Positions 3,197-18,414 of a DNA stretch of 64,000 bases are shown piece by piece. The position numbers and the translations under genes were made by a program. Source of the stretch: an uncultured Aestuariivirga sp. (GTDB taxonomy: Bacteria > Pseudomonadota > Alphaproteobacteria > Rhizobiales > Aestuariivirgaceae); assembly GCA_964510815.1 (NCBI GenBank), contig CAZECZ010000003.1, positions 3,430-67,429 on the forward strand. Reading direction: 5' to 3'. Numbering within the stretch: position 1 is the stretch's first letter; every line of letters begins with the position of its first letter. Under the pieces are notes generated by a model. The model saw only the letters and a list, made by a program, of their open reading frames with translations. It did not search any database and was not told the origin of the DNA.

Positions 3197-5316
3197 CAAT
3201 CGCAGACCTCGATGATTTCGGCGATCGACTTGGCACCACAGGCGGCCGGCTTCGGCTTAGCGTCGGCCGGCGCCGTGGTCGCAACGCTCAGGCTGTCAGA
3301 CGTCGCACCGCGTCCGAGGTCCGCCGACATAGGGCGCACGGTCTTGGGCGCCAGCCGCGAACGGTAGACATGCAGGTTCTGCAGCACCTTCTGCACATAA
3401 TGCCGCGTCTCGTGGAAGGGGATCGATTCCACCCAGTCGATCGGATCGATCTCGCCGGCACGCAGGTCGCCATATTCCTCGACCCACTCGCGTGAACGGC
3501 GCGGTCCGGCATTGTAGGCCACCAGCGTCAGCACATAGGAGCCTTCGAAGTCGGCGACGAGATCGCCCAGATGCGCGGCGCCGAGTTGAACGTTGTAGGA
3601 AGGATCGCCAGTGAGAACGCCATTCCGGTACCTGAGCCCATATTGCCTGGCAATCATCTTCGCCGTACCCGGCATGATCTGCATCAGCCCCTGGGCGCCG
3701 ACACTGCTGCCCGCCGTCGGGTTGAATTCGCTTTCCTGCCGCGACAGGGCGAAGACCAGCGGGCGTTCCACGGGCTTGCCCATGTCCTTCCAGTCGGGCA
3801 GGGCATGCACCGGATAGCCCCAGCTGTCGATGTCGAGGTTGCGCTGTGCCGCGGCCTTGGCAAGCCGGACCGCCAGGAACGGACCACCTTCGCTCCATGC
3901 CACGTCGGCAGCCGCATTCATCTCGTCGACGGTGTTGAAGCGGCTGGCGATCGACCACAGGAACCACGGCAACTGGCTCTTGCCGCCCGCCTCGGACACC
4001 ATCTTGAAAGCGCGGATCACTTCGTCCTTGTCGACCCGCGCCCTGGCGGCATCGGAGAACGCCCCGCTCTCGATTTCTTCCGGCACCTTGCCGCGGCCGA
4101 TCTTTTCACGCGCCAGCTGGCCGTAATAGACGGTCGAATACTGTGCCGCCTCGCGATACTGGGATGCAGCATCGCCCTTGCGTCCCATGGCCTCCAGCGC
4201 GCGGCCCTTCCAATAGCCGGCCCGGGCCTTTTCGGTGCGGTTGTCTGCCACCTCGCCGAGCCTGGTGAAATGCTTCAGCGCAGTGCCGGGATCCTTCAGG
4301 AAGCGCAGGGCGATCCAGCCGGACAGGAACTCGCCCTCGATGGCATTGTCCCCGCTGGAAAAGCCGTGTGCGCGGGTGATCTGATAGGCCGCCTTGGCAT
4401 TCTTGCGCTCCTTGAGCCCAATCGAATGCCTCGCGATGATGCGGCGCTCGATCCACCAGGCGCCGGGATCGCCCATGGCAACCGGATCGCCCGGAATGGT
4501 GGCCAGGACAGCCCGCGCCTTCGAATATTGTTCGCCGCGCCTGTAGAAGCGGGTGAGCGCGTATTTCATGCCCAGCTTCTCGCGCATGGATTTCGGCAGC
4601 GCTGCATACTTCTTGTCGGCACCACCCGAACGGCGGATCAGCAGCTGGGCCACGCTCGCGGCCTTCTGATAGTCGCGCGACAGCCGCTTCGAGGCGCGGA
4701 TGGCGGCATTGGTTTCCTGTGCATAGACCAGCCGCCACAGGCGCTTTTCGTGATCGCTGTCCGACAGCAGATTGCCGAATTCCTTCATCACGGCATTTTC
4801 CAGCGACGCATCGATGTCGGCATCGTGCCAAACCCGCTGCACGAACTTGCGCGCCGTATCCTTGTCGCCATTGGCGAGAAGGGCGCGGGCCAGCGCCAGC
4901 GATCCCTCAGGCGTCGTCGGCTTGCGCTTGCCGAAATGCTGAAGGATCAGGGAGGCCGGCTCGTTGTTCACATAGAGCGAGCGCTCGGCCCGCTTGAGCA
5001 GCGAATCCGTCAGCGGCCAGTTTGGCGCAGCGTCGAGAAAGGCCATGATCCGCCCGTAGCCCGCGTCGTTCGGGTGTTCGCGGAGATAGAGGAGTTCGAC
5101 CAGCTTCTGCGCGGCTGGATCGCGCGCCCGGGCAGCCGCCTGGCCCGCACCGGTGAAATCCTTTTTCAGCGCCAGCCGTGCGGCCTGGATCGCATCGCTG
5201 GATACCTTGGGTTCGGCATAGGCTTGGCCATCCGTGGAAAAGACCTGCGGCGAAATCATGGCGGTGGCGGCGAAGAGTGCAAAGAGACTGGTTCTGAGAA
5301 GGGTGGAAATACGCAT
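3196..5316 (-). CDS. slt: Soluble lytic murein transglycosylase (Slt70-like)
   Basis: Signal peptide; SLT motifs RQES, GLMQIMPGTA, AYNAGP and ETRHYV. Start could be TTG at 5325. Confidence 0.9.
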   Translation of the reverse strand: MRISTLLRTSLFALFAATAMISPQVFSTDGQAYAEPKVSSDAIQAARLALKKDFTGAGQAAARARDPAAQKLVELLYLREHPNDAGYGRIMAFLDAAPNWPLTDSLLKRAERSLYVNNEPASLILQHFGKRKPTTPEGSLALARALLANGDKDTARKFVQRVWHDADIDASLENAVMKEFGNLLSDSDHEKRLWRLVYAQETNAAIRASKRLSRDYQKAASVAQLLIRRSGGADKKYAALPKSMREKLGMKYALTRFYRRGEQYSKARAVLATIPGDPVAMGDPGAWWIERRIIARHSIGLKERKNAKAAYQITRAHGFSSGDNAIEGEFLSGWIALRFLKDPGTALKHFTRLGEVADNRTEKARAGYWKGRALEAMGRKGDAASQYREAAQYSTVYYGQLAREKIGRGKVPEEIESGAFSDAARARVDKDEVIRAFKMVSEAGGKSQLPWFLWSIASRFNTVDEMNAAADVAWSEGGPFLAVRLAKAAAQRNLDIDSWGYPVHALPDWKDMGKPVERPLVFALSRQESEFNPTAGSSVGAQGLMQIMPGTAKMIARQYGLRYRNGVLTGDPSYNVQLGAAHLGDLVADFEGSYVLTLVAYNAGPRRSREWVEEYGDLRAGEIDPIDWVESIPFHETRHYVQKVLQNLHVYRSRLAPKTVRPMSADLGRGATSDSLSVATTAPADAKPKPAACGAKSIAEIIEVCD

Positions 5317-5504: not shown

Positions 5505-6386
5505 GTGCCGTTCAGAGGTTCGTTTCCCGCATTGATCACCCCAATGAAGAATGGTGAAGTGGACGAGCACGCGTTCCGCAAATTCGTCAACTGGCAGATC
5601 GGCGAGGGGAGCCACGGTCTCGTCCCCGTCGGCACCACCGGCGAGAGCCCGACGCTCAATCCGGACGAGCACAAGCGCGTCATCGAGATTTGCATCGCGG
5701 AAACCAAGGGCAGGGTGCCCGTCATTGCCGGCACGGGCTCCAACAGCACCGCCGAAGCCATCGAGTACACGGTTCACGCCAAGGAAGCTGGTGCCGACGC
5801 TGCACTGGTCGTCGTGCCCTATTACAACAAGCCGACGCAGGACGGGCTCTACGCCCACTTCAAGGCGATCGCCGATGCCGTCGACATACCGATCTTCGTC
5901 TACAACGTGCCGGGCCGCACGGTGGCCAACATCTCGGTGGAGACGCTGACCCGGCTCAGCCACGACTGCAAGAACATCGTTGGCACCAAGGACGCCTCGG
6001 CCGACCTGACGCGGCCCTCGCGCCAGCGTCTGGCTTCTGGCACGGAATTCATCCAGCTCTCGGGCGAGGATGGCACGGCGCTGGGCTTCAATGCCCACGG
6101 CGGCGTCGGCTGCATTTCGGTGACCGCCAACGTGGCACCCCGCCTGTGTTCCGAGTTCCAGGAGGCGACGCTGAAGGGCGACTACGCCAAGGCGCTGCAG
6201 CTTCAGGACCGTTTGATGCCCTTGCATCATGCGCTGTTCGTCGAAACCAGCCCCGGCCCGGTGAAGTATGCCGCCAGCCTGCTCGGCATCTGCGACGCGG
6301 AAGCCCGCCTCCCGATGGTGCCGGTCAGCGAGGCAACCAAGCAGACAGTCCGCGACGCCATGGTGCATGCGGGACTGCTGAACTGA
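5505..6386 (+). CDS. dapA: 4-hydroxy-tetrahydrodipicolinate synthase
   Basis: GTTGES, PYYNKP, YNVPGRT, catalytic K in GTKDAS. Confidence 0.97.
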
Positions 6387-9254: not shown

Positions 9255-9372
9255 CCGGTGCGCAACGCGTCAAGACGGGATCGTCTTGGCGAAGCTGTTT
9301 CGCACCAGACTAATGTTGGACGAGCAACTTGTCTCACTCTTGATGGCTTCAGCAAGCGTGAGGTTGCTCTAG
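9255..9372 (+). mobile_element. 118-bp two-hairpin intergenic repeat, copy 1 (diverged; RIME/MITE-like)
   Basis: 91/118 identical to copy 3 by manual alignment with no indels; both hairpins retained; ends CCGG...CTAG. Confidence 0.85.
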
Positions 9373-9377
9373 TGGGT

Positions 9378-10001
9378 ATGCGTATGCGGATTTGGTTTGC
9401 AGCGGGCGTCGCGCTCGCAACTCTTCAATTGGCACTTCCGGCCAGCGCCGAGAAGGTGAAGTTCTCGCCCAAGGCCTTCCAGGTGTTTGGCGGCATTGAC
9501 GACAGCGCGCCGCAGGCCGCCGCATGGCGCAAGTCCGACATCCCGGACAGCCTGCGCAGCCGCAAAGTATCTTTTGCCTCGCAGCTGGCGCCGGGTTCCA
9601 TCCTGGTGAAGACGGGCACACGCCGGCTCTATTACATCCTGCCGTTGGGCCAGGCCATCGAATACAAGGTGGGCGTAGGCCGTGAAGGCTTCACGTGGAG
9701 CGGTGAGAACATTGTCTCGCGCAAGTCCGAATGGCCGGACTGGCGTCCGCCGCTTGAGATGATCCGGCGTGAAGCCAAGCGCGGCCACAAGCTGCCGGAC
9801 TTCATGCCGGGCGGACCGAAAAACCCCCTGGGTGCTCGCGCCATTTATATCGGGGACACCCAGTTCCGCATCCATGGCACCACCCAGCCATGGAGCATCG
9901 GCCAGGCTGTGTCATCGGGCTGCATCCGCATGATGAACGAGGAGGTCATCGATCTCTACGAGCGCGTCAAGGTCGGTGCCACGGTGGTGGTCGAAGACTG
10001 A
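9378..10001 (+). CDS. L,D-transpeptidase (YkuD/ErfK family)
   Basis: Signal peptide; VGVGREGF, NPLGARA, RIHGT...SSGCIRM. Start uncertain (ATG 9243, 9378 or 9384, all in frame). Confidence 0.92.
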   Translation: MRMRIWFAAGVALATLQLALPASAEKVKFSPKAFQVFGGIDDSAPQAAAWRKSDIPDSLRSRKVSFASQLAPGSILVKTGTRRLYYILPLGQAIEYKVGVGREGFTWSGENIVSRKSEWPDWRPPLEMIRREAKRGHKLPDFMPGGPKNPLGARAIYIGDTQFRIHGTTQPWSIGQAVSSGCIRMMNEEVIDLYERVKVGATVVVED

Positions 10002-10032
10002 TTGGCGCGGAAATGCTGAAAAACTGCGCGTG

Positions 10033-10048
10033 ATAACTGTCCCTTAAC
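10033..10048 (+). promoter_or_regulatory. CtrA-like site (one mismatch)
   Basis: ATAA CTGTCCC TTAAC upstream of the LysM/M23 gene. Confidence 0.55.
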
Positions 10049-10095
10049 CTAAACAAGTCATTTTCGACTTGTCTGTTTGTAGTGGAGTTCCGGGC

Positions 10096-11424
10096 ATGTC
10101 GTTCATGAATCATCACGCGTCTTGGGGGTCGTTCAAGGCGAGGTTTTTACTCACAGCCGCTGCCGCCGTGATGTTGTCGGCCTGTTCGAACGCCGTCGAA
10201 CGGTTCTCCGAAAATCCTTCCGATGCCGATCCGGTCTACACCGCGTCGGTGCAGAAGCAGAAGCCGGCAGAGCCGTCCTATCAGGCCCCCGATGAGGGCT
10301 CGATCAGCAGCAGCCCGCTGAAGAACGCCTCCGTCCAGCAGCCGCCCAAATACGATTACACCCGGTCCTATCAGCAGAAGCAGCCCACCTACCAGCCCCC
10401 GGCCTACAAGCAGCCGGAGGTCGCAAGGGTAGCGCCCCCGCGTGCGCCCGCTGCGGCCGGAACCGTCCAGGTCGGCCCGGGCATGACGCTGTATTCGATC
10501 GCCCGCGCCAACAATCTCACGGTGGCGCAGCTGGCCGCGGCCAACAACATCAAGCCGCCCTACGCGGTGCGCACCGGACAGACACTGCGCATTCCAGGCG
10601 CAGCCAGCCCGTCACTGCCGCAAACCACGGCCCGCGCTACGGCACCGGCCCCGCAGCCGCCGCGCCAGCAGACTGCCGCCGTGGTACAGCCGGTTCGTGC
10701 GTCCGCCAAGGGCATGCACACCGTCACCCGTGGAGAAACCCTATTCTCGCTCGGCCGCAAATATGGTGTCTCGCCCTATGCCATTGCCGATGCCAATGGC
10801 CTGGGTCACAACGCCCAGCTCAGCCTCGGTCAGACCGTGAAGATTCCGTCTGGCGGCAAGGCCCTCACCGCCCGCGTGGAAGACTCGCCGCCAAAGCTGA
10901 CTGCCCCCTCGGCTCCCAAGCCGGTGGCCGAAATGCCGCAGACCGACCAGGTTGAAGCCGCGCCCTCGACGATGGCGGCAGAGGGCGCGCCGCAGCCGGA
11001 AGCCCAGCCCCAGACGCTGGCTGACAACTCCGCGTCCGGCATGCGCTGGCCCGTCCGTGGCAAGGTGATCTCCGGCTTCGGCCCGAAGTCGAACGGCCTC
11101 AAGAACGAAGGCATCAACATCTCCGTGCCGGAAGGAACCAGCATCCGTGCGGCCGAGAGCGGCGTCGTCGCCTATGCCGGCAACGAGCTGAAGGGTTATG
11201 GCAATCTGGTCCTCATCCGCCACGAAGGCGGCTATGTCACCGCCTATGCCCACGCCAAGGAGCTGTTCGTGAAACGCGGTGACACGGTGAAGCGCGGCGA
11301 CGTTATCGCCAAGGCAGGCCAAACCGGTTCCGTATCGAGCCCGCAGCTGCATTTCGAAGTGCGCAAGGGCGCCACGGCACTCGACCCGATCAAGTATCTG
11401 TCGTCATCGACCGCGTCCAACTGA
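10096..11424 (+). CDS. LysM-repeat / M23 peptidase-domain lipoprotein (NlpD/DipM-like)
   Basis: Lipobox LSAC; two LysM domains; degenerate M23 domain (NEGINI, YAHA, PQLHFEVR); SD GGAG. Confidence 0.9.
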   Translation: MSFMNHHASWGSFKARFLLTAAAAVMLSACSNAVERFSENPSDADPVYTASVQKQKPAEPSYQAPDEGSISSSPLKNASVQQPPKYDYTRSYQQKQPTYQPPAYKQPEVARVAPPRAPAAAGTVQVGPGMTLYSIARANNLTVAQLAAANNIKPPYAVRTGQTLRIPGAASPSLPQTTARATAPAPQPPRQQTAAVVQPVRASAKGMHTVTRGETLFSLGRKYGVSPYAIADANGLGHNAQLSLGQTVKIPSGGKALTARVEDSPPKLTAPSAPKPVAEMPQTDQVEAAPSTMAAEGAPQPEAQPQTLADNSASGMRWPVRGKVISGFGPKSNGLKNEGINISVPEGTSIRAAESGVVAYAGNELKGYGNLVLIRHEGGYVTAYAHAKELFVKRGDTVKRGDVIAKAGQTGSVSSPQLHFEVRKGATALDPIKYLSSSTASN

Positions 11425-11453
11425 TCGCGGTCACGAGACCCCTGCAAGGGATG

Positions 11454-11488
11454 AGGGCCCGGACTTCGGTTCGGGCTCTTGCCTTTTT
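11454..11488 (+). terminator. Rho-independent terminator-like hairpin
   Basis: AGGGCCCGGAC-TTCG-GTTCGGGCTCT stem with a UUCG loop and a nearby T run. Confidence 0.6.
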
Positions 11489-11529
11489 GGCTCCCGATGC
11501 GGCATCCTCTTGCTCGCGAGGAGGCCCAC

Positions 11530-12195
11530 ATGATCACGCTATGGGGACGGCGGAACTCCGCCAACGTGCAGAAAGTTCTGTGGACGCTTGAGGAATTGGG
11601 CGTGCGCTTCACGCGTGAAGCGGTGGGTGGCAGCTTCGGCGGCAACCGCGACGCCGATTTCCTCGCCATGAACCCCATGGGGCTGGTGCCTGTCATCCGC
11701 GATGGCGATGTCACCATGTTCGAATCCAATGCGATCGTGCGCTATCTCACCGCCCGCTATGCCAACGGCGAGCTGCGTCCCACCGAGCATTTACACCTCG
11801 CCATGGCTGAACAGTGGATGGAATGGCAGCAGAATGTCTTTGCCCAGCCCGTACTCACGATCTTCATGAACAGCGTGCGCATGGCGCCGGAAAAGCGCAA
11901 CGCCGCGGCGGTGGCCGAGGCCGAGTCCAAAGCCGTCGAGGCGCTGAAGATCGCCGATGCCCATCTTGCCCGTCACGACTGGTTCGCCGGCTCGGCCTTC
12001 AGCTTCGGGGACATCGTCATGGGCACCTTCCTCTATCGTTACATGGGCCTCGACTGTACCAAGCCGGACATGCCCCATGTGCGCGAATGGCTCGAGGCCA
12101 TCGAGGGGCGCGAAGCCTTCCGCAACACGATTGGTGCGGTGCCGCGGGCCAAGGATCCAGCCGACTGGCTGCGCATCGAAAAAGAGTTCGGCTGA
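11530..12195 (+). CDS. Glutathione S-transferase family protein
   Basis: WGRRNSANVQKV, NPMGLVP, FESNAIVRYL; SD GGAGG. Confidence 0.93.
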   Translation: MITLWGRRNSANVQKVLWTLEELGVRFTREAVGGSFGGNRDADFLAMNPMGLVPVIRDGDVTMFESNAIVRYLTARYANGELRPTEHLHLAMAEQWMEWQQNVFAQPVLTIFMNSVRMAPEKRNAAAVAEAESKAVEALKIADAHLARHDWFAGSAFSFGDIVMGTFLYRYMGLDCTKPDMPHVREWLEAIEGREAFRNTIGAVPRAKDPADWLRIEKEFG

Positions 12196-12199
12196 GGCG

Positions 12200-13195
12200 A
12201 TGTCGATGCGTGCAGTACAACTCCATGGCAAGGGCGACCTTCGGCTGGCGGACGTGCCGCGCCCCGGCGCTTTGAAAGCTGGCGAGGTCCGCGTGAAGGT
12301 GGAGGCGGCAGGCATCTGCGGCTCCGACATCCACAACTACCGCACTGGCCAGTGGATCAGCCGCACGCCCAGCATTCCCGGCCACGAATTGTCAGGCGTC
12401 ATCACAGAAACTGGTCCTGGGGCAGGGCATTTTAACGTTGGTGACCTGGTGGTGGCGGACTCGCGCTATTGGTGCGGCACCTGCGAGGCTTGCCGCACCG
12501 GCAAGCACCATCTCTGCCAATCCATCGGCTTCGTCGGCGAGGTCTGCGATGGTGGTTTTGCCGAGGAGACGGTTTTGCCGGCGCGCCTGCTGCTGAAAGC
12601 CGATCAGGGCCTCCCTGCGGACGTCGCGGCGACCGCCGAGCCGCTCGCCGTGGCGCTCCATGCCGTGGCCCGATTGGCGCCAGTGCAGGGCGAAACGATC
12701 CTGGTCACCGGCTGCGGCATGATCGGCGCACTGGTGGCCCTGGTGCTGTCGCGCAAGGGGGCCGTGTCGGTACGGGTCGCCGACCGCAACCTGGCCCGCG
12801 CTGAATTGGTGGCCGAGGTGACGGGCGCCGTGGCGGTTGGCGTCGATGAGCCCGGCCTTGCCGGTATCAGCGGTCTGGTCGAGGCCACCGGCAGCTCCCC
12901 GCTGCTGCGCCATCTGGTGGACGTCGTCCCCGGCGGCAGCCGGATCGCGCTGGTCGGTATATTCCATGGACACATGGACCTCGACCCTACCATCCTGGTC
13001 GAGCGGGAACTGGCACTCGTGGGTTGCCACGCCTTCGCAGATGAATTGACCGAGGCCGTGCGCCTGCTGCCGCATTTGAAGGACGAGATCCTCCAGTTTC
13101 TGTCGGAACCGATCCGCCTCGACGAGGTGCCGGAGGCCTATGCCCGCATCATCGCCGGGGAGATGAAGGCGCCCAAGACCATCATCAGGCCCTGA
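12200..13195 (+). CDS. Zinc-binding alcohol dehydrogenase (MDR family)
   Basis: GICGSD, GHE, CGTCEAC...LC, GCGMIG. Confidence 0.9.
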   Translation: MSMRAVQLHGKGDLRLADVPRPGALKAGEVRVKVEAAGICGSDIHNYRTGQWISRTPSIPGHELSGVITETGPGAGHFNVGDLVVADSRYWCGTCEACRTGKHHLCQSIGFVGEVCDGGFAEETVLPARLLLKADQGLPADVAATAEPLAVALHAVARLAPVQGETILVTGCGMIGALVALVLSRKGAVSVRVADRNLARAELVAEVTGAVAVGVDEPGLAGISGLVEATGSSPLLRHLVDVVPGGSRIALVGIFHGHMDLDPTILVERELALVGCHAFADELTEAVRLLPHLKDEILQFLSEPIRLDEVPEAYARIIAGEMKAPKTIIRP

Positions 13196-13199
13196 ACGC

Positions 13200-13317
13200 T
13201 CAGAGCAACTTGACTTTTGATGGAACCATCAAAAGTCAGATAAGTTGCTCGCTCATCAATAGGTTAGTGCGTCATTGCTTCGCCAAGACGATTCCGTCTT
13301 GGCGCATTCCGCACTAG
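13200..13317 (-). mobile_element. 118-bp two-hairpin intergenic repeat, copy 2
   Basis: 112/118 identical to copy 3. Its CTAG end contains the TAG stop of the DUF815 gene. Confidence 0.9.
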
Positions 13318-14177
13318 ACGTCCAGCTTCTGTCCGAGCTTGCCGGCGAGGTCCTGGATGAATTGCCAGGCCACACGGCCGGACCGGCTGCCGCGCGTCGC
13401 CTGCCAGGCAATGGCCCCGGCACGGAGCTCCTCGGGGCTCACCTGAAGCCCGAAGTATTTCGCGTAACCCTCGATCATATCGAGATATTCGTCCTGCGAG
13501 CAATTGTGGAACCCGAGCCACAGCCCGAACCGGTCGGATAGTGACACTTTCTCTTGCACGGCTTCTGACGGGTTGATTGCCGTCGAACGCTCGTTCTCGA
13601 TCATGTCGCGCGGCAGCAGATGGCGGCGGTTGGAGGTGGCATAGAACATCATGTTGGAGGGCCGTCCCTCGATGCCGCCGTCGAGCGCCGCCTTCAGCGA
13701 CTTGTAGGACGTATCATCAAAATCGAATGAGAGATCGTCGCAGAACACGATGAAGCGGAACTCTTCGGCCTTGCGGATGATATTCATCAGCACCGGGAGG
13801 CTCTCGATATCCTCGCGGTGGATCTCGATGAGCTTGAGGCTGCCGCCTGTCTGGCCGTTCACCAGCGCATGTGCCGCTTTCACCAGCGAAGACTTGCCCA
13901 TGCCGCGCGCGCCCCACAGCAGCGCATTGTTGGCCGGCAGGCCCTTGGCGAAGCGTTCGGTGTTCTCGATCAGGATGTCACGTGTCAGGTCGATGCCCTT
14001 GAGCAGTCCGATGTCCACCCGGTTGACCTTGGCAACGGATTCCAGCACCGGCGGTGCGGCGTGCCAGACGAAAGCTTCGTTGGCGGCCAGATCGGCAGGC
14101 GGCGGCAACGGTGGTGCCAGCCGTTCCAGGGCCTCGGCGATGCGGCGGAGCAGGGCAGGATCGGTTATGTCTGTCAT
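13314..14177 (-). CDS. AAA+ ATP-binding protein (DUF815)
   Basis: GLPANNALLWGARGMGKSS, FCDDLSF, YATSNRRHL, SLSDRFGL, SGRVAWQF. Confidence 0.92.
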   Translation of the reverse strand: MTDITDPALLRRIAEALERLAPPLPPPADLAANEAFVWHAAPPVLESVAKVNRVDIGLLKGIDLTRDILIENTERFAKGLPANNALLWGARGMGKSSLVKAAHALVNGQTGGSLKLIEIHREDIESLPVLMNIIRKAEEFRFIVFCDDLSFDFDDTSYKSLKAALDGGIEGRPSNMMFYATSNRRHLLPRDMIENERSTAINPSEAVQEKVSLSDRFGLWLGFHNCSQDEYLDMIEGYAKYFGLQVSPEELRAGAIAWQATRGSRSGRVAWQFIQDLAGKLGQKLDV

Positions 14178-14287
14178 GGCGGCCTCTTAGCCGAGGGTTG
14201 AGAGGCCGTAAAGCCGCCCCAATCGATTGGTTGCAATGGCGGGAACCGTCGCTATATTCCGCGCACATTTCGATTGGGAGACATTCC

Positions 14288-14623
14288 GTGTTTATTACTC
14301 CGGCCTACGCCCAGGCTGCCACACCCGGCGCGGGCGATTTCGTCAGCATGATTCTGCCCCTCGTCGCCATCATGGCGGTGTTCTACTTCCTGCTCATCCG
14401 TCCGCAGCAGAAGAAGATGAAGGATCACCAGGAACTTCTGAAGAAGGTCATGAAGGGCGACACGGTCGTCACCAGCGGCGGCCTCATTGGCAAGGTCACC
14501 AAGGTCATCGACGATAACGAACTCCAGGTCGAGATCGGTGAGAACATCAAGATTCGCTTGCTGCGCTCTGGTATCTCCGACGTCAGGGCGAAGGGTGAGC
14601 CCATCAAGTCTGACACCAAGTAG
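14288..14623 (+). CDS. yajC: Preprotein translocase subunit YajC
   Basis: FYFLLIRPQQKK, GDTVVTSGGLIG; GTG start after GGGAG. Confidence 0.95.
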   Translation: MFITPAYAQAATPGAGDFVSMILPLVAIMAVFYFLLIRPQQKKMKDHQELLKKVMKGDTVVTSGGLIGKVTKVIDDNELQVEIGENIKIRLLRSGISDVRAKGEPIKSDTK

Positions 14624-14629
14624 CCGCCC

Positions 14630-16231
14630 ATGTTCAACATCCCCCGCTGGAAGTCGCTGGCCATTCTCGCCTCCGTGCTTCTCGCCATCATCCTGGCGCT
14701 GCCAAATGTGCTTCCGACGGATACGCGGGCCAAGTTGCGAGACTACGGCCTGAGGCCCGTGACACTCGGCCTCGACCTGCAGGGTGGCATCAACATCCTG
14801 CTCGAGATCGACCGCAAGGACCTGCACAACCGCCTGTCGGAGCAGCTGGTAGGTGATATCCGCAGCACGCTGCGTGAAGCGCGCATCGGCTACAATGGCA
14901 TCAACCGCTTCGACAGCGGTGTGCGGGTGCGAATTGCCAAGCCGGAAGACATGGACAAGGCGAAAACCGAGCTGCGCAAGCTGATTCAGCCGCTGGACAC
15001 GGGCTTCTTCGGCGGCGGCGCCACGGCCGCACTGTTCACCCTGTCGGACCAGGCCCAGCAAATCACCTTCTCCTTCTCCGAGCCCGGTCTCGATGCCAAG
15101 GTCGCCGGTGCCATTGCCCAGTCCCTCAAGATCATCGAGAAGCGCGTCAATCCGGACGGCGTGGTCGAAGCCACCATCCAGCAGCAGGGCAAGGACCGCA
15201 TTGTCGTCCAGATTCCCGGTGTGCAGGACAGCGAAGAGATCAAGCGCCGCCTTGACCGCACGGCCAAGCTCACATTCCAGTTGCTCTGCGAAAGCCAGCC
15301 GACGTCAGAGGGCCAGAACCCGCCGCCAGATTGCAAGGCCCTGCCGGTGAAGGATGAGCCGCAGAATATCATCTGGGTGCAGACATCGAGCCGCGCCACC
15401 GTCGACGGCGCCGATTTGGTCGATGCCAAGGGCACCTTCGACCAGAACAACAACCCGGTCGTCTCGTTCCGCTTCAACACCAAGGGTGCCGAGCGCTTCG
15501 GCCGGCTGACGCGCGACAACGTCGGCAAGCCCTTCGCCATCATCCTCGACGATGTGGTCGTCTCCTATCCCCGCATCAATGAGCCGATCCTTGGTGGGTC
15601 GGGGCAGATTTCCGGCAATTTTACCACCCAGGAGACCAACGACCTCGCCATCGTGCTGCGCTCCGGCGCGCTGCCGGCCAAGCTGACCATCGTGGAGGAG
15701 CGCACCGTCGGCCCCAGCCTAGGCTCCGACTCGATCCGCGCCGGCCTCATCGCCTGTGCGATTGGTCTTGCCGCCGTCTTGGTCTTCATGGTGATCGCCT
15801 ATGGCCTGTTCGGCATCTTCGCCGACATTGCCCTGCTGGCGAACCTCACCTTGCTGCTCGGCGTCATGTCCTTCTTGGGTTTCACGCTGACGCTGCCCGG
15901 CATTGCCGGCATCGTGCTCACCATGGGCATGGCGGTTGACTCCAATGTGCTGGTCTTCGAGCGCGTGCGCGAGGAATGGAAGAACGGCCGTACCGCGATC
16001 AACGCCATCGAGACGGGTTTCCGCGCCGCGCTCGGTACCATCGTCGACGCCAATGTGACGACGCTCATCGCCGCCGCCGTGTTGTTCGGCATCGGCTCGG
16101 GTCCCATCAAGGGCTTCGCGGTCACGCTGTCTGTCGGCATCATCACAACCGTGTTCACCGCCTTCACGCTCACCCAGCTGATCATCGCATACTGGGTGCG
16201 CAAGACGCGGCCGAAGGAGGTTCCGCTCTGA
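14630..16231 (+). CDS. secD: Protein translocase subunit SecD
   Basis: LGLDLQGG, LRSGALPA, TLPGIAG, AVDSNVL.FERVREE, DANVTT. Confidence 0.97.
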   Translation: MFNIPRWKSLAILASVLLAIILALPNVLPTDTRAKLRDYGLRPVTLGLDLQGGINILLEIDRKDLHNRLSEQLVGDIRSTLREARIGYNGINRFDSGVRVRIAKPEDMDKAKTELRKLIQPLDTGFFGGGATAALFTLSDQAQQITFSFSEPGLDAKVAGAIAQSLKIIEKRVNPDGVVEATIQQQGKDRIVVQIPGVQDSEEIKRRLDRTAKLTFQLLCESQPTSEGQNPPPDCKALPVKDEPQNIIWVQTSSRATVDGADLVDAKGTFDQNNNPVVSFRFNTKGAERFGRLTRDNVGKPFAIILDDVVVSYPRINEPILGGSGQISGNFTTQETNDLAIVLRSGALPAKLTIVEERTVGPSLGSDSIRAGLIACAIGLAAVLVFMVIAYGLFGIFADIALLANLTLLLGVMSFLGFTLTLPGIAGIVLTMGMAVDSNVLVFERVREEWKNGRTAINAIETGFRAALGTIVDANVTTLIAAAVLFGIGSGPIKGFAVTLSVGIITTVFTAFTLTQLIIAYWVRKTRPKEVPL

Positions 16232-16247
16232 GAGCGGAGAGCATCCC

Positions 16248-17183
16248 ATGAAAGGTATTCGCTTCATTCCCGACGGCACCACGCTGCGCTTCATGCGCAT
16301 CAGCCGCTTCGGCTATCTCGCCTCCGGCATTCTCTGTGCATTGTCGCTGGTGTTGTTCCTGACGGTTGGGCTCAACGTCGGTGTCGATTTCAAGGGCGGC
16401 ACCGTCATCACCATCCGCACCGAGCAGCCTGCCAATCTCGACCAGCTTCGGTCCACCATCAATGGACTGGGGCTTGGTGCGGCCGAGTTGCAGGAGTTCG
16501 GTACTCCCAACGATGTTCTGATCCGCATCGGCGTGCAGGACGGCGGCGAGGAAGCCCAGCAGGCCGCCATTCAGAAGATCAAGGACGCGCTGGGGCCCGG
16601 CGTTGACTACCGGAGCGTCGAGGTCGTCGGCCCCAAGGTCTCCGGCGAGTTGGCGCAGGAGGGTATCGTCGCGGTGGTCGCCTCGATCATCTGCGTGCTG
16701 ATCTATATCTGGTTCCGATTCGAGTGGCAGTTCGCCGCCGGCGCCGTGCTGTCGCTGCTGCATGACGTCGTTCTCACCATCGGCCTGTTCTGCCTGCTCA
16801 GGATCGAATTCAATCTGCAGATCATCGCCGCGATTCTGACCATCGTCGGCTATTCGCTGAACGACACCGTCGTCATCTTTGACCGTATCCGTGAGTTCCT
16901 GCGCAAGTACAAGTCGATGCCTCTCGCCGACCTGATCGACTTTTCGATCAACTCGGTCCTGCCGCGCACCATCCTCACCTCAACCACCACGCTCATCGCC
17001 CTGCTGTCGCTCTATATCTTCGGCGGCGAAGTGATAGCGGGCTTCACCTTCACCATGATCTGGGGCGTCATCGTCGGCACCTATTCGTCCTATTTCGTGG
17101 CCGCTCCCGTGCTGCTGCTGTTTGGCACCGAGCGTGAATCGAAGAAGGCCGAAGCCAAGGCGGCGGTGGCCGCCAGGCCTTGA
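16248..17183 (+). CDS. secF: Protein translocase subunit SecF
   Basis: GVDFKGG, RFEWQF, HDV, GYSLNDTVVIFDRIRE, GTYSS. Confidence 0.97.
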   Translation: MKGIRFIPDGTTLRFMRISRFGYLASGILCALSLVLFLTVGLNVGVDFKGGTVITIRTEQPANLDQLRSTINGLGLGAAELQEFGTPNDVLIRIGVQDGGEEAQQAAIQKIKDALGPGVDYRSVEVVGPKVSGELAQEGIVAVVASIICVLIYIWFRFEWQFAAGAVLSLLHDVVLTIGLFCLLRIEFNLQIIAAILTIVGYSLNDTVVIFDRIREFLRKYKSMPLADLIDFSINSVLPRTILTSTTTLIALLSLYIFGGEVIAGFTFTMIWGVIVGTYSSYFVAAPVLLLFGTERESKKAEAKAAVAARP

Positions 17184-17554
17184 CGGCATATTATCCGGGA
17201 CGGCCCACCATCGACTCCTATGGCGGTGGTGGATTTCGTTTTGCTGGCATGTCTCATCACGGCTCGATCCTGGCGTTGCCGAGCGGCGTCTATGACTGGA
17301 ACCCATCGCCAGACGGGTTGACCGTGGAAGATGTCCGCGGCGTGCTGGCCGAGCGCGGCGATGTCGACCTTCTGATTGTCGGCACCGGCAAAGCCATGGC
17401 GCGGCCGCCCCGCGCCGTTCGAGAGGCGATCGAAGCCACCGGCATGATGCTCGATTGCATGGCAACCGGCCATGCGGTCTCGACCTACAATCTCCTGCTG
17501 GGCGAGAAGCGCAAGGTGGCCGCGGCCTTCATCGCTGTGGAGCAGCCGGGGTGA
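17180..17554 (+). CDS. Mth938-like domain protein (NDUFAF3 homolog)
   Basis: IDSYGGGGF, LLIVGTG, M.TG.AV.TYNLL.GE.R.VAAA; located after secF. Confidence 0.88.
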   Translation: MTAYYPGRPTIDSYGGGGFRFAGMSHHGSILALPSGVYDWNPSPDGLTVEDVRGVLAERGDVDLLIVGTGKAMARPPRAVREAIEATGMMLDCMATGHAVSTYNLLLGEKRKVAAAFIAVEQPG

Positions 17555-18300
17555 GCGAGGCGCAAGCCTATTGCCAGACCCTTGTGCGCGACGCCGACCG
17601 GGACCGTTATCTCGCAAGCCTGTTCGCGCCCGATGCCGCCCGCCCGCATCTCCTGTCACTCTATGCGTTCAATGCCGAAGTCGCCCGCATTGCCCAGACC
17701 GTGAGTGAACCGCAACTGGGCTTGATCCGCCATCAATGGTGGCTCGATACGCTGGAGGCCATGGAGCAGGGGCAAGCGCCCGCCCATCCGGTCGCGCAGG
17801 CGCTGGCCGAAACCGCGAGGACCCATCGCCTGCCCATCGAACCGCTGCGCCAACTCGTCATCGCCCGTGAGGCCGACCTCTATGACGATCCGCCATCCGA
17901 TCTGCAGGCACTGGAAGCGCATCTGGGCGCCACGTCGTCTGTCCTCATTCAGCTTGCGGCCCTGATCCTCGCCGGCCCAAGGGCGTCGGCCTGTGCCGAG
18001 GCGGCAGGCTATGCTGGCGTGGCCTATGGATCGGCAACGGCGCTGGTCCACCCGCGACCAAGGCCGCTGCCGCCCGGCATGGACCGCGACGCCGCCATGA
18101 CCCACGCCCGCTCGCGGCTCAAACAAGCGCGCGAGGCAGCACGAGCCATACCGCGTGCGGCGCTGCCGGCCTTTCTCCCGGCCAGCCTGACCGGGCTCTA
18201 TCTCGCCGCCGCCGAACGTTCACCGGAAGCGCCCTGCCAGCCGTCACAATTCCGCCGCCAGCTGACGATGTGGTGGCGCGCCAGAGGGGACCGGTTCTAG
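17551..18300 (+). CDS. Phytoene/squalene synthase family protein (NDUFAF6-like)
   Basis: D.DRYLASLFAP, LYAFNAEVARI, SEP.LG.IR.QWW, AFLP; GTGA overlap with the upstream stop. Confidence 0.88.
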   Translation: MSEAQAYCQTLVRDADRDRYLASLFAPDAARPHLLSLYAFNAEVARIAQTVSEPQLGLIRHQWWLDTLEAMEQGQAPAHPVAQALAETARTHRLPIEPLRQLVIAREADLYDDPPSDLQALEAHLGATSSVLIQLAALILAGPRASACAEAAGYAGVAYGSATALVHPRPRPLPPGMDRDAAMTHARSRLKQAREAARAIPRAALPAFLPASLTGLYLAAAERSPEAPCQPSQFRRQLTMWWRARGDRF

Positions 18301-18414
18301 TGCGTAATGCGCCAAGACGGAATCGTCTTGGCGAAGCAATTACGCACCAACCTATTGATGAGCGAGCAACTTACCTGACTTTTGATGGTTCCATCAAAAG
18401 TCAAGTTGCTCTTG
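18297..18414 (+). mobile_element. 118-bp two-hairpin intergenic repeat, copy 3
   Basis: CTAG-GTGCGTAAT..CGCCAAGACG-GAAT-CGTCTTGGCG..ATTACGCAC, then GAGCAACT..TGACTTTTGATGG-TT-CCATCAAAAGTCA-AGTTGCTC. The CTAG contains the upstream gene's TAG. Confidence 0.9.

Follow-up and report, generated by a model that had tools for sequence, protein, structure and literature searches.

A polymorphic, TA-duplicating palindromic repeat of Aestuariivirga is likely a miniature element moved by the transposase of an IS630 clade

Which enzyme moves the small palindromic repeats that some alphaproteobacterial genomes hold in many copies? The question is raised by three copies of such a repeat in a 64,000-nucleotide stretch of DNA from an uncultured Aestuariivirga sp. 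(positions 3,430 to 67,429 of contig CAZECZ010000003.1, assembly GCA_964510815.1), which is referred to here as the window. The repeat type itself is already known; CIR1 and CIR2 of Caulobacter and Brucella were reportedly described by Chen and Shapiro in 2003, and RIME of Sinorhizobium and Rhizobium by Osteras in 1995. An original prediction, made from the window alone, had placed three 118-bp copies without indels at the positions listed in Table 1, and the positions, the lengths, and the identities between copies 2 and 3 (112/118) and copies 1 and 3 (91/118) were all confirmed; copies 1 and 2 are identical at 89/118 positions. The repeat is a recently polymorphic, TA-duplicating MITE (miniature inverted-repeat transposable element) of the CIR/RIME/BRU-RS type. 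Comparison of its ends with those of insertion sequences (IS) suggests that it is a 112-bp, TA-flanked MITE with arms that match one IS630 clade, the transposase of which likely cuts and pastes it in trans.

The proposal that the repeat is a nonautonomous mobile element was borne out by its dispersed copies and by empty orthologous sites. One polymorphic copy, L048:6173-6290 (C13:34972-35089 in the source genome, G000), is inserted in frame in a DUF6647 gene, which it lengthens by exactly 38 residues near the C-terminus. Contigs from runs X10 and X7, which come from two studies (all X runs are metagenomes of activated sludge or wastewater), join L048 position 6174 to position 6290 with one G between them, and the X10 empty-site contig differs from G000 at 4/1435 letters. 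At the filled site the codons run Leu(CTA)-insert-Leu(CTA)-Met, compared with Leu(CTG)-Met at the empty one. Past the right TA comes the A of the host ATG, and because this base is host derived, the duplication comprises only TA and the element 112 bp. The empty sites thus document a TA target duplication, as in MITEs of the IS630 family. Of the 16 homologues found, 11 were aligned, and all of them, a 98%-identical allele among them, lack the 38-residue insert; DUF6647 was not found in 60 other genomes of the genus. Within a living population, a CIR-type element adds a 38-residue peptide to a protein. For X11 and X1 no joint of L048 positions 6174 and 6290 was among those listed, and for L048's two short copies the listed joints did not include a second one.

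The locus of copy 3 gave a similar result across species. Of 29 loci fetched from other genomes, 17 had both flanking genes, and in 16 of these 17 the distance from stop to start was 4 to 18 bp (11 bp in 10 of them) versus 125 bp at the copy-3 locus, a net gain of 114 bp. Copy 3 is also skipped by one X7 contig with a depth of 3. The 17th orthologue, L013 (G127:C308), has a different palindromic repeat of ca. 180 bp at the same intergenic site, which suggests that this is a tolerated insertion spot. In X5 and X7, single contigs run across copy 1, which is therefore present in those strains.

The TA duplication points to IS630/Tc1 elements. The best DDE_3 matches in the genus form a clade of elements of about 1050 bp with ends that start TA-GAGC or TA-GATC and lie at Y-TA-R. 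Matrices for the left (IRL) and right (IRR) inverted terminal repeats were made from the 30-bp ends of 19 IS630 elements, which were kept from 33 loci for having a clear terminal-repeat pair, the excluded loci being truncated, mispaired, or of other clades; the background was the 141,250 other TA sites in G000. Across the 31 long copies of the repeat in G000, the left arms scored a median of 15.3 bits on IRL and 11.6 bits on IRR, and the right arms scored a median of 18.9 bits on IRR and 15.1 bits on IRL. Only 6 (IRL) and 3 (IRR) of the background sites reached the medians, and the top-scoring background sites were IS ends of the matching IS630 clade. The IRL score of the left arm of copy 3 was likewise equaled by 6 of the 141,250 sites and the IRR score of its right arm by 3. 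The match survived when the first bases were dropped, with 3 to 4 of 35,844 TAG sites scoring as high as copies 2 and 3, and the similarity covers the outer ~26 bp of each hairpin. Between the IS end L097 and copies L089 and L091 from relatives, as many as 15 terminal bases are exactly the same. Ends similar to those of an autonomous IS630 were found in the long form of the repeat but not at the right end of a shorter form (short form A, described below).

The position of the CcrM-type GANTC site adds to this correspondence. The site lies at offset 22 in 17 of the 19 IS630 left ends, as it does in hairpin 1 of the repeat, and an offset-22 GANTC is also found in hairpin 2 of many relatives. The offset in the inner arm varies (14 to 15 in a Brucella genome, 26 in the source repeat), whereas that in the outer arm stays at 22. 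The transposase of ISY100, a member of the IS630 family, is reported in parts of PMC2170065 to excise and insert its element alone with TA duplication and to protect 24-bp repeats, and mini-elements with 30-bp ends work.

An intact IS630 of the matching clade lives in the same species as the repeat. G000 is a fragmented assembly of 4.76 Mb in 332 contigs, in which left ends of the IS are found on C124, C150, and C187 and right ends on C81, C256, and C288, each 30 to 55 bp from a contig break. A whole 1054-bp IS630, with a helix-turn-helix open reading frame (ORF) and a DDE_3 ORF in overlapping frames, was present in L145 and L146, two of the five metagenome contigs found via its end, and one of its flanks is identical to G000 contig C81. 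With three copies and identical ends, this IS was probably active recently. A tblastn search of G000 with the clade transposase gave no match because the interior of the IS is unassembled. The claim that the window encodes no mobilizing enzyme also held for the three families searched, as Y1_Tnp, DDE_3, and DUF4096 were unmatched on its contig. The flanking genes of the 79 loci found in G000, inspected by eye from N-terminal sequence only, included no recurring nuclease or recombinase.

Other insertion sequences of the source genome and genus were rejected as sources of the arms. In G000 itself, DDE_3 had three matches, which fall in two other IS630 clades with unrelated ends (<3 bits). One other-clade element, in L042 (G000:C86:17538-18770), interrupts the left arm of a short-form-A copy at a TA, and this element and a remnant on C262 end beside tRNA-like sequence. 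At 29 IS5/DUF4096 loci the ends mostly begin with TAGG and failed to match the arms. GANTC lies near one terminus at several of the genus's IS5/DUF4096 ends (among L329-L357), and CcrM sites at IS ends appear to be common in the genus.

The expectation of many more copies genome-wide was met with 79 loci in G000, found via blastn with the three window copies as queries and sorted with a motif classifier. The long form accounts for 31 copies (27 of 118 bp, 3 of 114 bp, and 1 of 119 bp), which have a mean identity of 93% with no identical pair. Short form A, with 15 copies of which 14 measure 76 bp (for example, G000:C13:33509-33568), has a short stub in place of hairpin 2. Short form B (eight loci, with six true 83-bp copies) lacks hairpin 1. 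The remaining 25 loci, copy 1 among them, are partial, at contig ends, or divergent. The end logos of the G000 copies show TA at both termini; past a single base, which is Y before the left TA and R after the right TA, the flanks are unrelated. The loop GANTC is kept in 24 of the 27 full 118-bp copies and in 54 of the 60 copies with hairpin 1. The linker holds a 13-mer like the binding consensus of integration host factor (IHF), with at most one mismatch in 25/31 long copies, 14/15 copies of short form A, and 6/6 copies of short form B, versus 87/930 shuffles. Further CIR-like families and mosaics in G000 (C326:1-161, the end of C112, C50:14255, C213:6309, C228:5200, C151:3907, and C115:6207) include a tandem array and cases of another left arm joined to the same hairpin 2; it appears that the arms can be exchanged as modules. 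No RNA was among the listed holders of the sequence.

A 4-bp CTAG duplication was considered and rejected; in many copies the 4-mers at the two ends are not the same (C at the left and A at the right in 13 of the 31 long copies), and the last base is host derived. CTAG is depleted threefold in G000. Among long copies, a CCAG right end was found in 4 of 12 ending in G and in 0 of 14 ending in A, a pattern that very-short-patch repair would cause. An element-encoded terminal base is unsupported, as no internal variant follows it.

The resemblance to CIR, RIME, and BRU-RS elements that had been proposed from architecture is supported by homologues on Sinorhizobium meliloti pSymB. A model, R1, was made from an alignment of 31 copies from nine genomes, and G000 is included in its genus and class counts. 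R1 gave 10 sites on pSymB with E < 1e-3 (best, 2.8e-10); these elements, which may be the published RIME1, have the same ends, the same linker, and a homologous hairpin 2, with a hairpin 1 that differs in sequence. It matched 91/151 genomes of the genus, 4 of 5 named genomes tested (Sinorhizobium, Ensifer, and two Brucella), and 29 sites in Ensifer sesbaniae, with no match in the one Caulobacteraceae metagenome-assembled genome (MAG) tested. Longer variants, R1 matches of 137 to 142 bp (L276, L277, L282, and L283, in G229 and G205), occur in two other families. Head-to-tail tandem pairs of a 107-bp variant occur at G072:C25:139-347 and C87:68438-68647, the first pair overlapping at its ends, and a related element, L350 (G011:C442), has a second small palindrome inserted in the hairpin-2 loop. 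Searches of Rfam gave no match near any gathering score, and blastn of plasmids with the repeat gave no match.

Under strict filters R1 matched only 7/151 genomes of the class, and therefore the breadth of the superfamily rests on a pattern scan of GTDB genomes with the skeleton of the repeat. The scan gave at least 122 loci with a pattern that itself fixed the GANTC offset; 97 of these loci were 103 to 107 bp long, and 88 of the 97 fold into two long hairpins. The titles of the matches listed, counted by eye, were 108 alphaproteobacterial, 4 of unresolved Pseudomonadota, and 10 of other taxa. The offset was then freed in a Brucella genome and the Caulobacteraceae MAG, chosen since each held one pattern match. 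An offset of 22 was the mode in the Brucella genome (16 among the first 52 of 284 rows) and the joint mode in the MAG (10/98), where it was tied with 37, which was largely tRNA-like. In Sinorhizobium, an internally deleted IS630 of the clade has 13 exact terminal bases in common with the pSymB elements. Its left end matches 16 of 18 pSymB arms at 17 to 20 of 28 positions and mostly outmatches the best of 38 ends from the source genus on these arms. Such a local correspondence between arm and IS, seen for one element, is suggestive only.

If the transposase of the IS630 clade acts in trans on the outer arms, the remaining features of the repeat could be accommodated as follows. Each hairpin might have arisen by inverted duplication of a terminal repeat, with the outer arm keeping the spacing that the transposase reads. 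The loop GANTC would be inherited from the left end of the IS, and its methylation by CcrM could gate transposase binding or be vestigial. The IHF-like linker may bend the DNA so that two ends only ~110 bp apart can pair. The bias of copies toward stop codons and toward the gaps between convergent genes would reflect a TAG restored by the element's first G and the tolerance of insertions there.

Several observations weigh against this assignment. The 19 IS630 elements behind the matrices were picked by eye. The resident IS matches the arms of copy 3 at only 17/28 and 13/28 positions, and the best arm matches (19 to 22 of 28) come from a sister subclade not found in the G000 assembly. The right end of short form A scores as background past its first bases, yet this form has spread, which a strict two-end model does not predict; in addition, the base after its right TA is G in 15/15 copies, versus 19/38 copies of other forms (p = 3.5e-4). 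Among 150 genomes of the genus, the repeat was present in 31 of 43 with IS ends versus 59 of 107 without them (p = 0.07), a weak association, drawn from related and incomplete genomes, that fell further at higher copy thresholds. The left end of the clade was not found in four of the five named genomes, three of which have R1-matching repeats. In the empty DUF6647 allele, CTG stands in place of the expected CTA, one synonymous difference that makes it unlikely to have come from a fresh excision. The hairpins show compensatory pairing, which a plain transposase binding terminal repeats does not require: 94% of the cells in the R1 alignment are paired (0/500 shuffles), and both sides are altered in 19/38 pairs, a count that is not a probability because the sequences are related. 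The structure could be of importance to either the enzyme or the host.

The strong pairing, the spread of short form A without a matching right end, the poor match of the resident IS, and the weak co-occurrence would all suit a repeat whose arms came from IS630 ends but which now spreads by a hairpin-reading route on single-stranded or cruciform DNA, with an HUH/RAYT-like or other enzyme. We consider this route rather unlikely. A TA duplication with a host-derived flanking base is the signature of IS630/Tc1 elements and is not expected of IS200/IS605-type HUH insertion. The HUH/Y1 mobilizer that the original prediction had offered as an option found no backing, with no PF01797 (Y1_Tnp) match in the 332 contigs of G000. 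Furthermore, the offset of GANTC is fixed in the outer arm and varies in the inner arm. Another TA- or CTAG-targeting DDE family, such as the IS427 group of IS5 or another IS630 clade, might instead move the repeat, with the arm likeness convergent through the TA start and the CcrM site. IS5 ends in the genus also lie at CTAG, several with GANTC, and GANTC near IS ends is common there. However, the arms have no match among the IS5 ends, the five IS5 loci with high scores that were checked owe these to other words (at least three being a neighboring repeat or an IS630-type end), and the match of the arms persists without the first bases, the left arm fitting IRL and the right arm fitting IRR. 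We find this reading highly improbable.

It is also very unlikely that the repeat is mainly a regulatory element kept by the host, whether as RNA hairpins at 3' ends acting in termination or stability or as a CcrM/IHF site on the chromosome, and copied by recombination. Its conserved pairing and its genomic context speak for such a role. With genes called by our own simple caller, 24 of 46 copies lie between convergent genes, versus 333 of 2435 intergenic regions (p = 1e-9), and TAG is a called stop at the left end of 23/67 copies and at the right end of 14/54, versus 10% of genomic CTAG sites. Nevertheless, the exact presence and absence of copies between near-identical strains, the unrelated flanks, the in-frame insertion in a coding sequence, and positions that are not conserved across species all argue against a primarily host-kept element, and terminator prediction at copy 3 gave only a weak terminator-like call. 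A secondary host role is possible.

Mobilization by the IS630 clade invites a wider proposal, for which we judge the evidence about evenly balanced: that the whole CIR/RIME/BRU-RS superfamily may consist of still-active MITEs of one IS630 clade, with each end turned into a hairpin and with the conserved CcrM site being that of the IS left end, inside the transposase footprint. If so, the missing mobilizer would be named and the conserved GANTC explained, and cell cycle methylation and IHF bending would gate the movement of the superfamily.

The anatomy of the window copies is summarized in Table 1. Copy 1 is located between folK and an L,D-transpeptidase gene, copy 2 between convergent Zn-dehydrogenase and DUF815 genes, and copy 3 between a phytoene/squalene-synthase-like gene and a DUF4153 gene. 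As predicted, TAG provides the stop of the DUF815 ORF at copy 2 and of the phytoene/squalene-synthase-like ORF, which ends at 18300, at copy 3. The loop of hairpin 1 contains GAATC in copies 2 and 3, and GANTC is lost in copy 1, which has GGATC. Two hairpins were recognized in every copy as proposed, but they are not unrelated: the outer arms are imperfect terminal inverted repeats, identical at 14/28 positions by hand count. CTAG ends were found at three of the six ends, the others being CCGG, CTGA, and CTTG; the duplicated target is TA rather than CTAG, and the element proper therefore comprises positions 4 to 115, or 112 bp. The left TA of copy 1 has decayed to CG with its right TA intact; copy 3 has TA at 18298-18299 and a right TA decayed to TT at 18412-18413. 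Both hairpins fold on both strands in all three copies (DNA folding z of -5.6 to -10.4; 0/200 shuffles as good). One reading frame is open through copy 3.

Table 1. Coordinates of the repeat copies in the window and of the parts of copies 2 and 3
Feature	Position	Strand	Remark
Copy 1, decayed	9255..9372	+	Element proper 9258-9369
Copy 2	13200..13317	-	Element proper 13314-13203
TAG stop of DUF815	13314..13316	-	Target TA plus first G of the element; ORF 13314-14177(-)
Copy 3	18297..18414	+	Element proper 18300-18411
Left outer arm	18298..18325	+	Collinear with left terminal repeat of the IS630 clade; 15.3 bits on IRL matrix
Hairpin 1	18300..18347	+	Inner arm 4 nt longer than outer arm
GAATC, CcrM-type GANTC	18320..18324	+	Offset 22 from terminal T
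IHF-consensus-like 13-mer in linker	18348..18360	-	12/13 match to consensus
Hairpin 2	18364..18411	+	4-nt bulge in inner arm
Right outer arm	18386..18413	-	Collinear with right terminal repeat of the IS630 clade; 23.0 bits on IRR matrix

Beyond the original prediction, the analysis adds the TA duplication, an IHF-like linker, two short forms, and the link to IS630. A search of the open literature, with the primary CIR, RIME, and Bru-RS papers and ISfinder outside it, found no statement tying CIR, RIME, or Bru-RS repeats to IS630, and IS630 is absent from the main text of a 2024 MITE review (PMC10969869). The locus offers a candidate enzyme, known in full sequence from the same species, and an exact pair of empty and filled sites, a simple origin is proposed for the conserved CcrM site, and the old question of CIR mobility is now testable.

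Like Rickettsia palindromic elements, the repeat is palindromic and found in frame in a protein gene (the 38 residues in DUF6647), but only 1 of its 52 classified copies is intragenic. Like the GTAG/CGTC-tagged REPs and REPINs associated with RAYT, it has a tag plus a hairpin in inverted order at each end, as described in parts of PMC3733652, the main text of which has no CTAG, RIME, or IS630. It differs from them in its TA duplication and longer hairpins, and no Y1 transposase was found in the fragmented G000. For RIME, five chvI-chvG regions from other species contained no RIME-type repeat, and the supplements of PMC2873474 and PMC2573895 held no RIME row. Bru-RS1 and Bru-RS2 are given a length of 103 to 105 bp in the part of PMC2267715 that describes them, and pattern matches in three Brucella genomes are 103 to 104 bp long; the one Brucella match that was folded shows the same ends and GAATC at offset 22, the modal offset of its genome. 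Unlike the source repeat, the Brucella elements have a shorter inner arm and another hairpin sequence.

RUP of Streptococcus pneumoniae and Correia/NEMIS of Neisseria, the IS630-linked MITEs treated in sections of PMC2229807, are also about 110 bp long and duplicate TA. The mobilizer of RUP was likewise inferred from the similarity of terminal repeats, and the 155-bp Correia element has an IHF site too. However, those elements fold as one stem that joins their 5' and 3' ends, whereas each end of the repeat has its own inverted copy, giving two hairpins. The sections of the same source on CIR describe elements that never lie within genes and whose six frames are all closed by stops; they leave the mobility mechanism and the role of GANTC open and list the target duplication as unknown (PMC2229807). 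The repeat resembles CIR as described there in being a multicopy, mostly intergenic element of ~110 bp with two stem-loops and a linker, a conserved GANTC in the terminal loop, and TA at both termini, and differs in its one open frame, its one in-frame intragenic copy, and its demonstrated TA duplication. Compared by description, the repeat is best placed as a CIR variant and not as CIR1 or CIR2.

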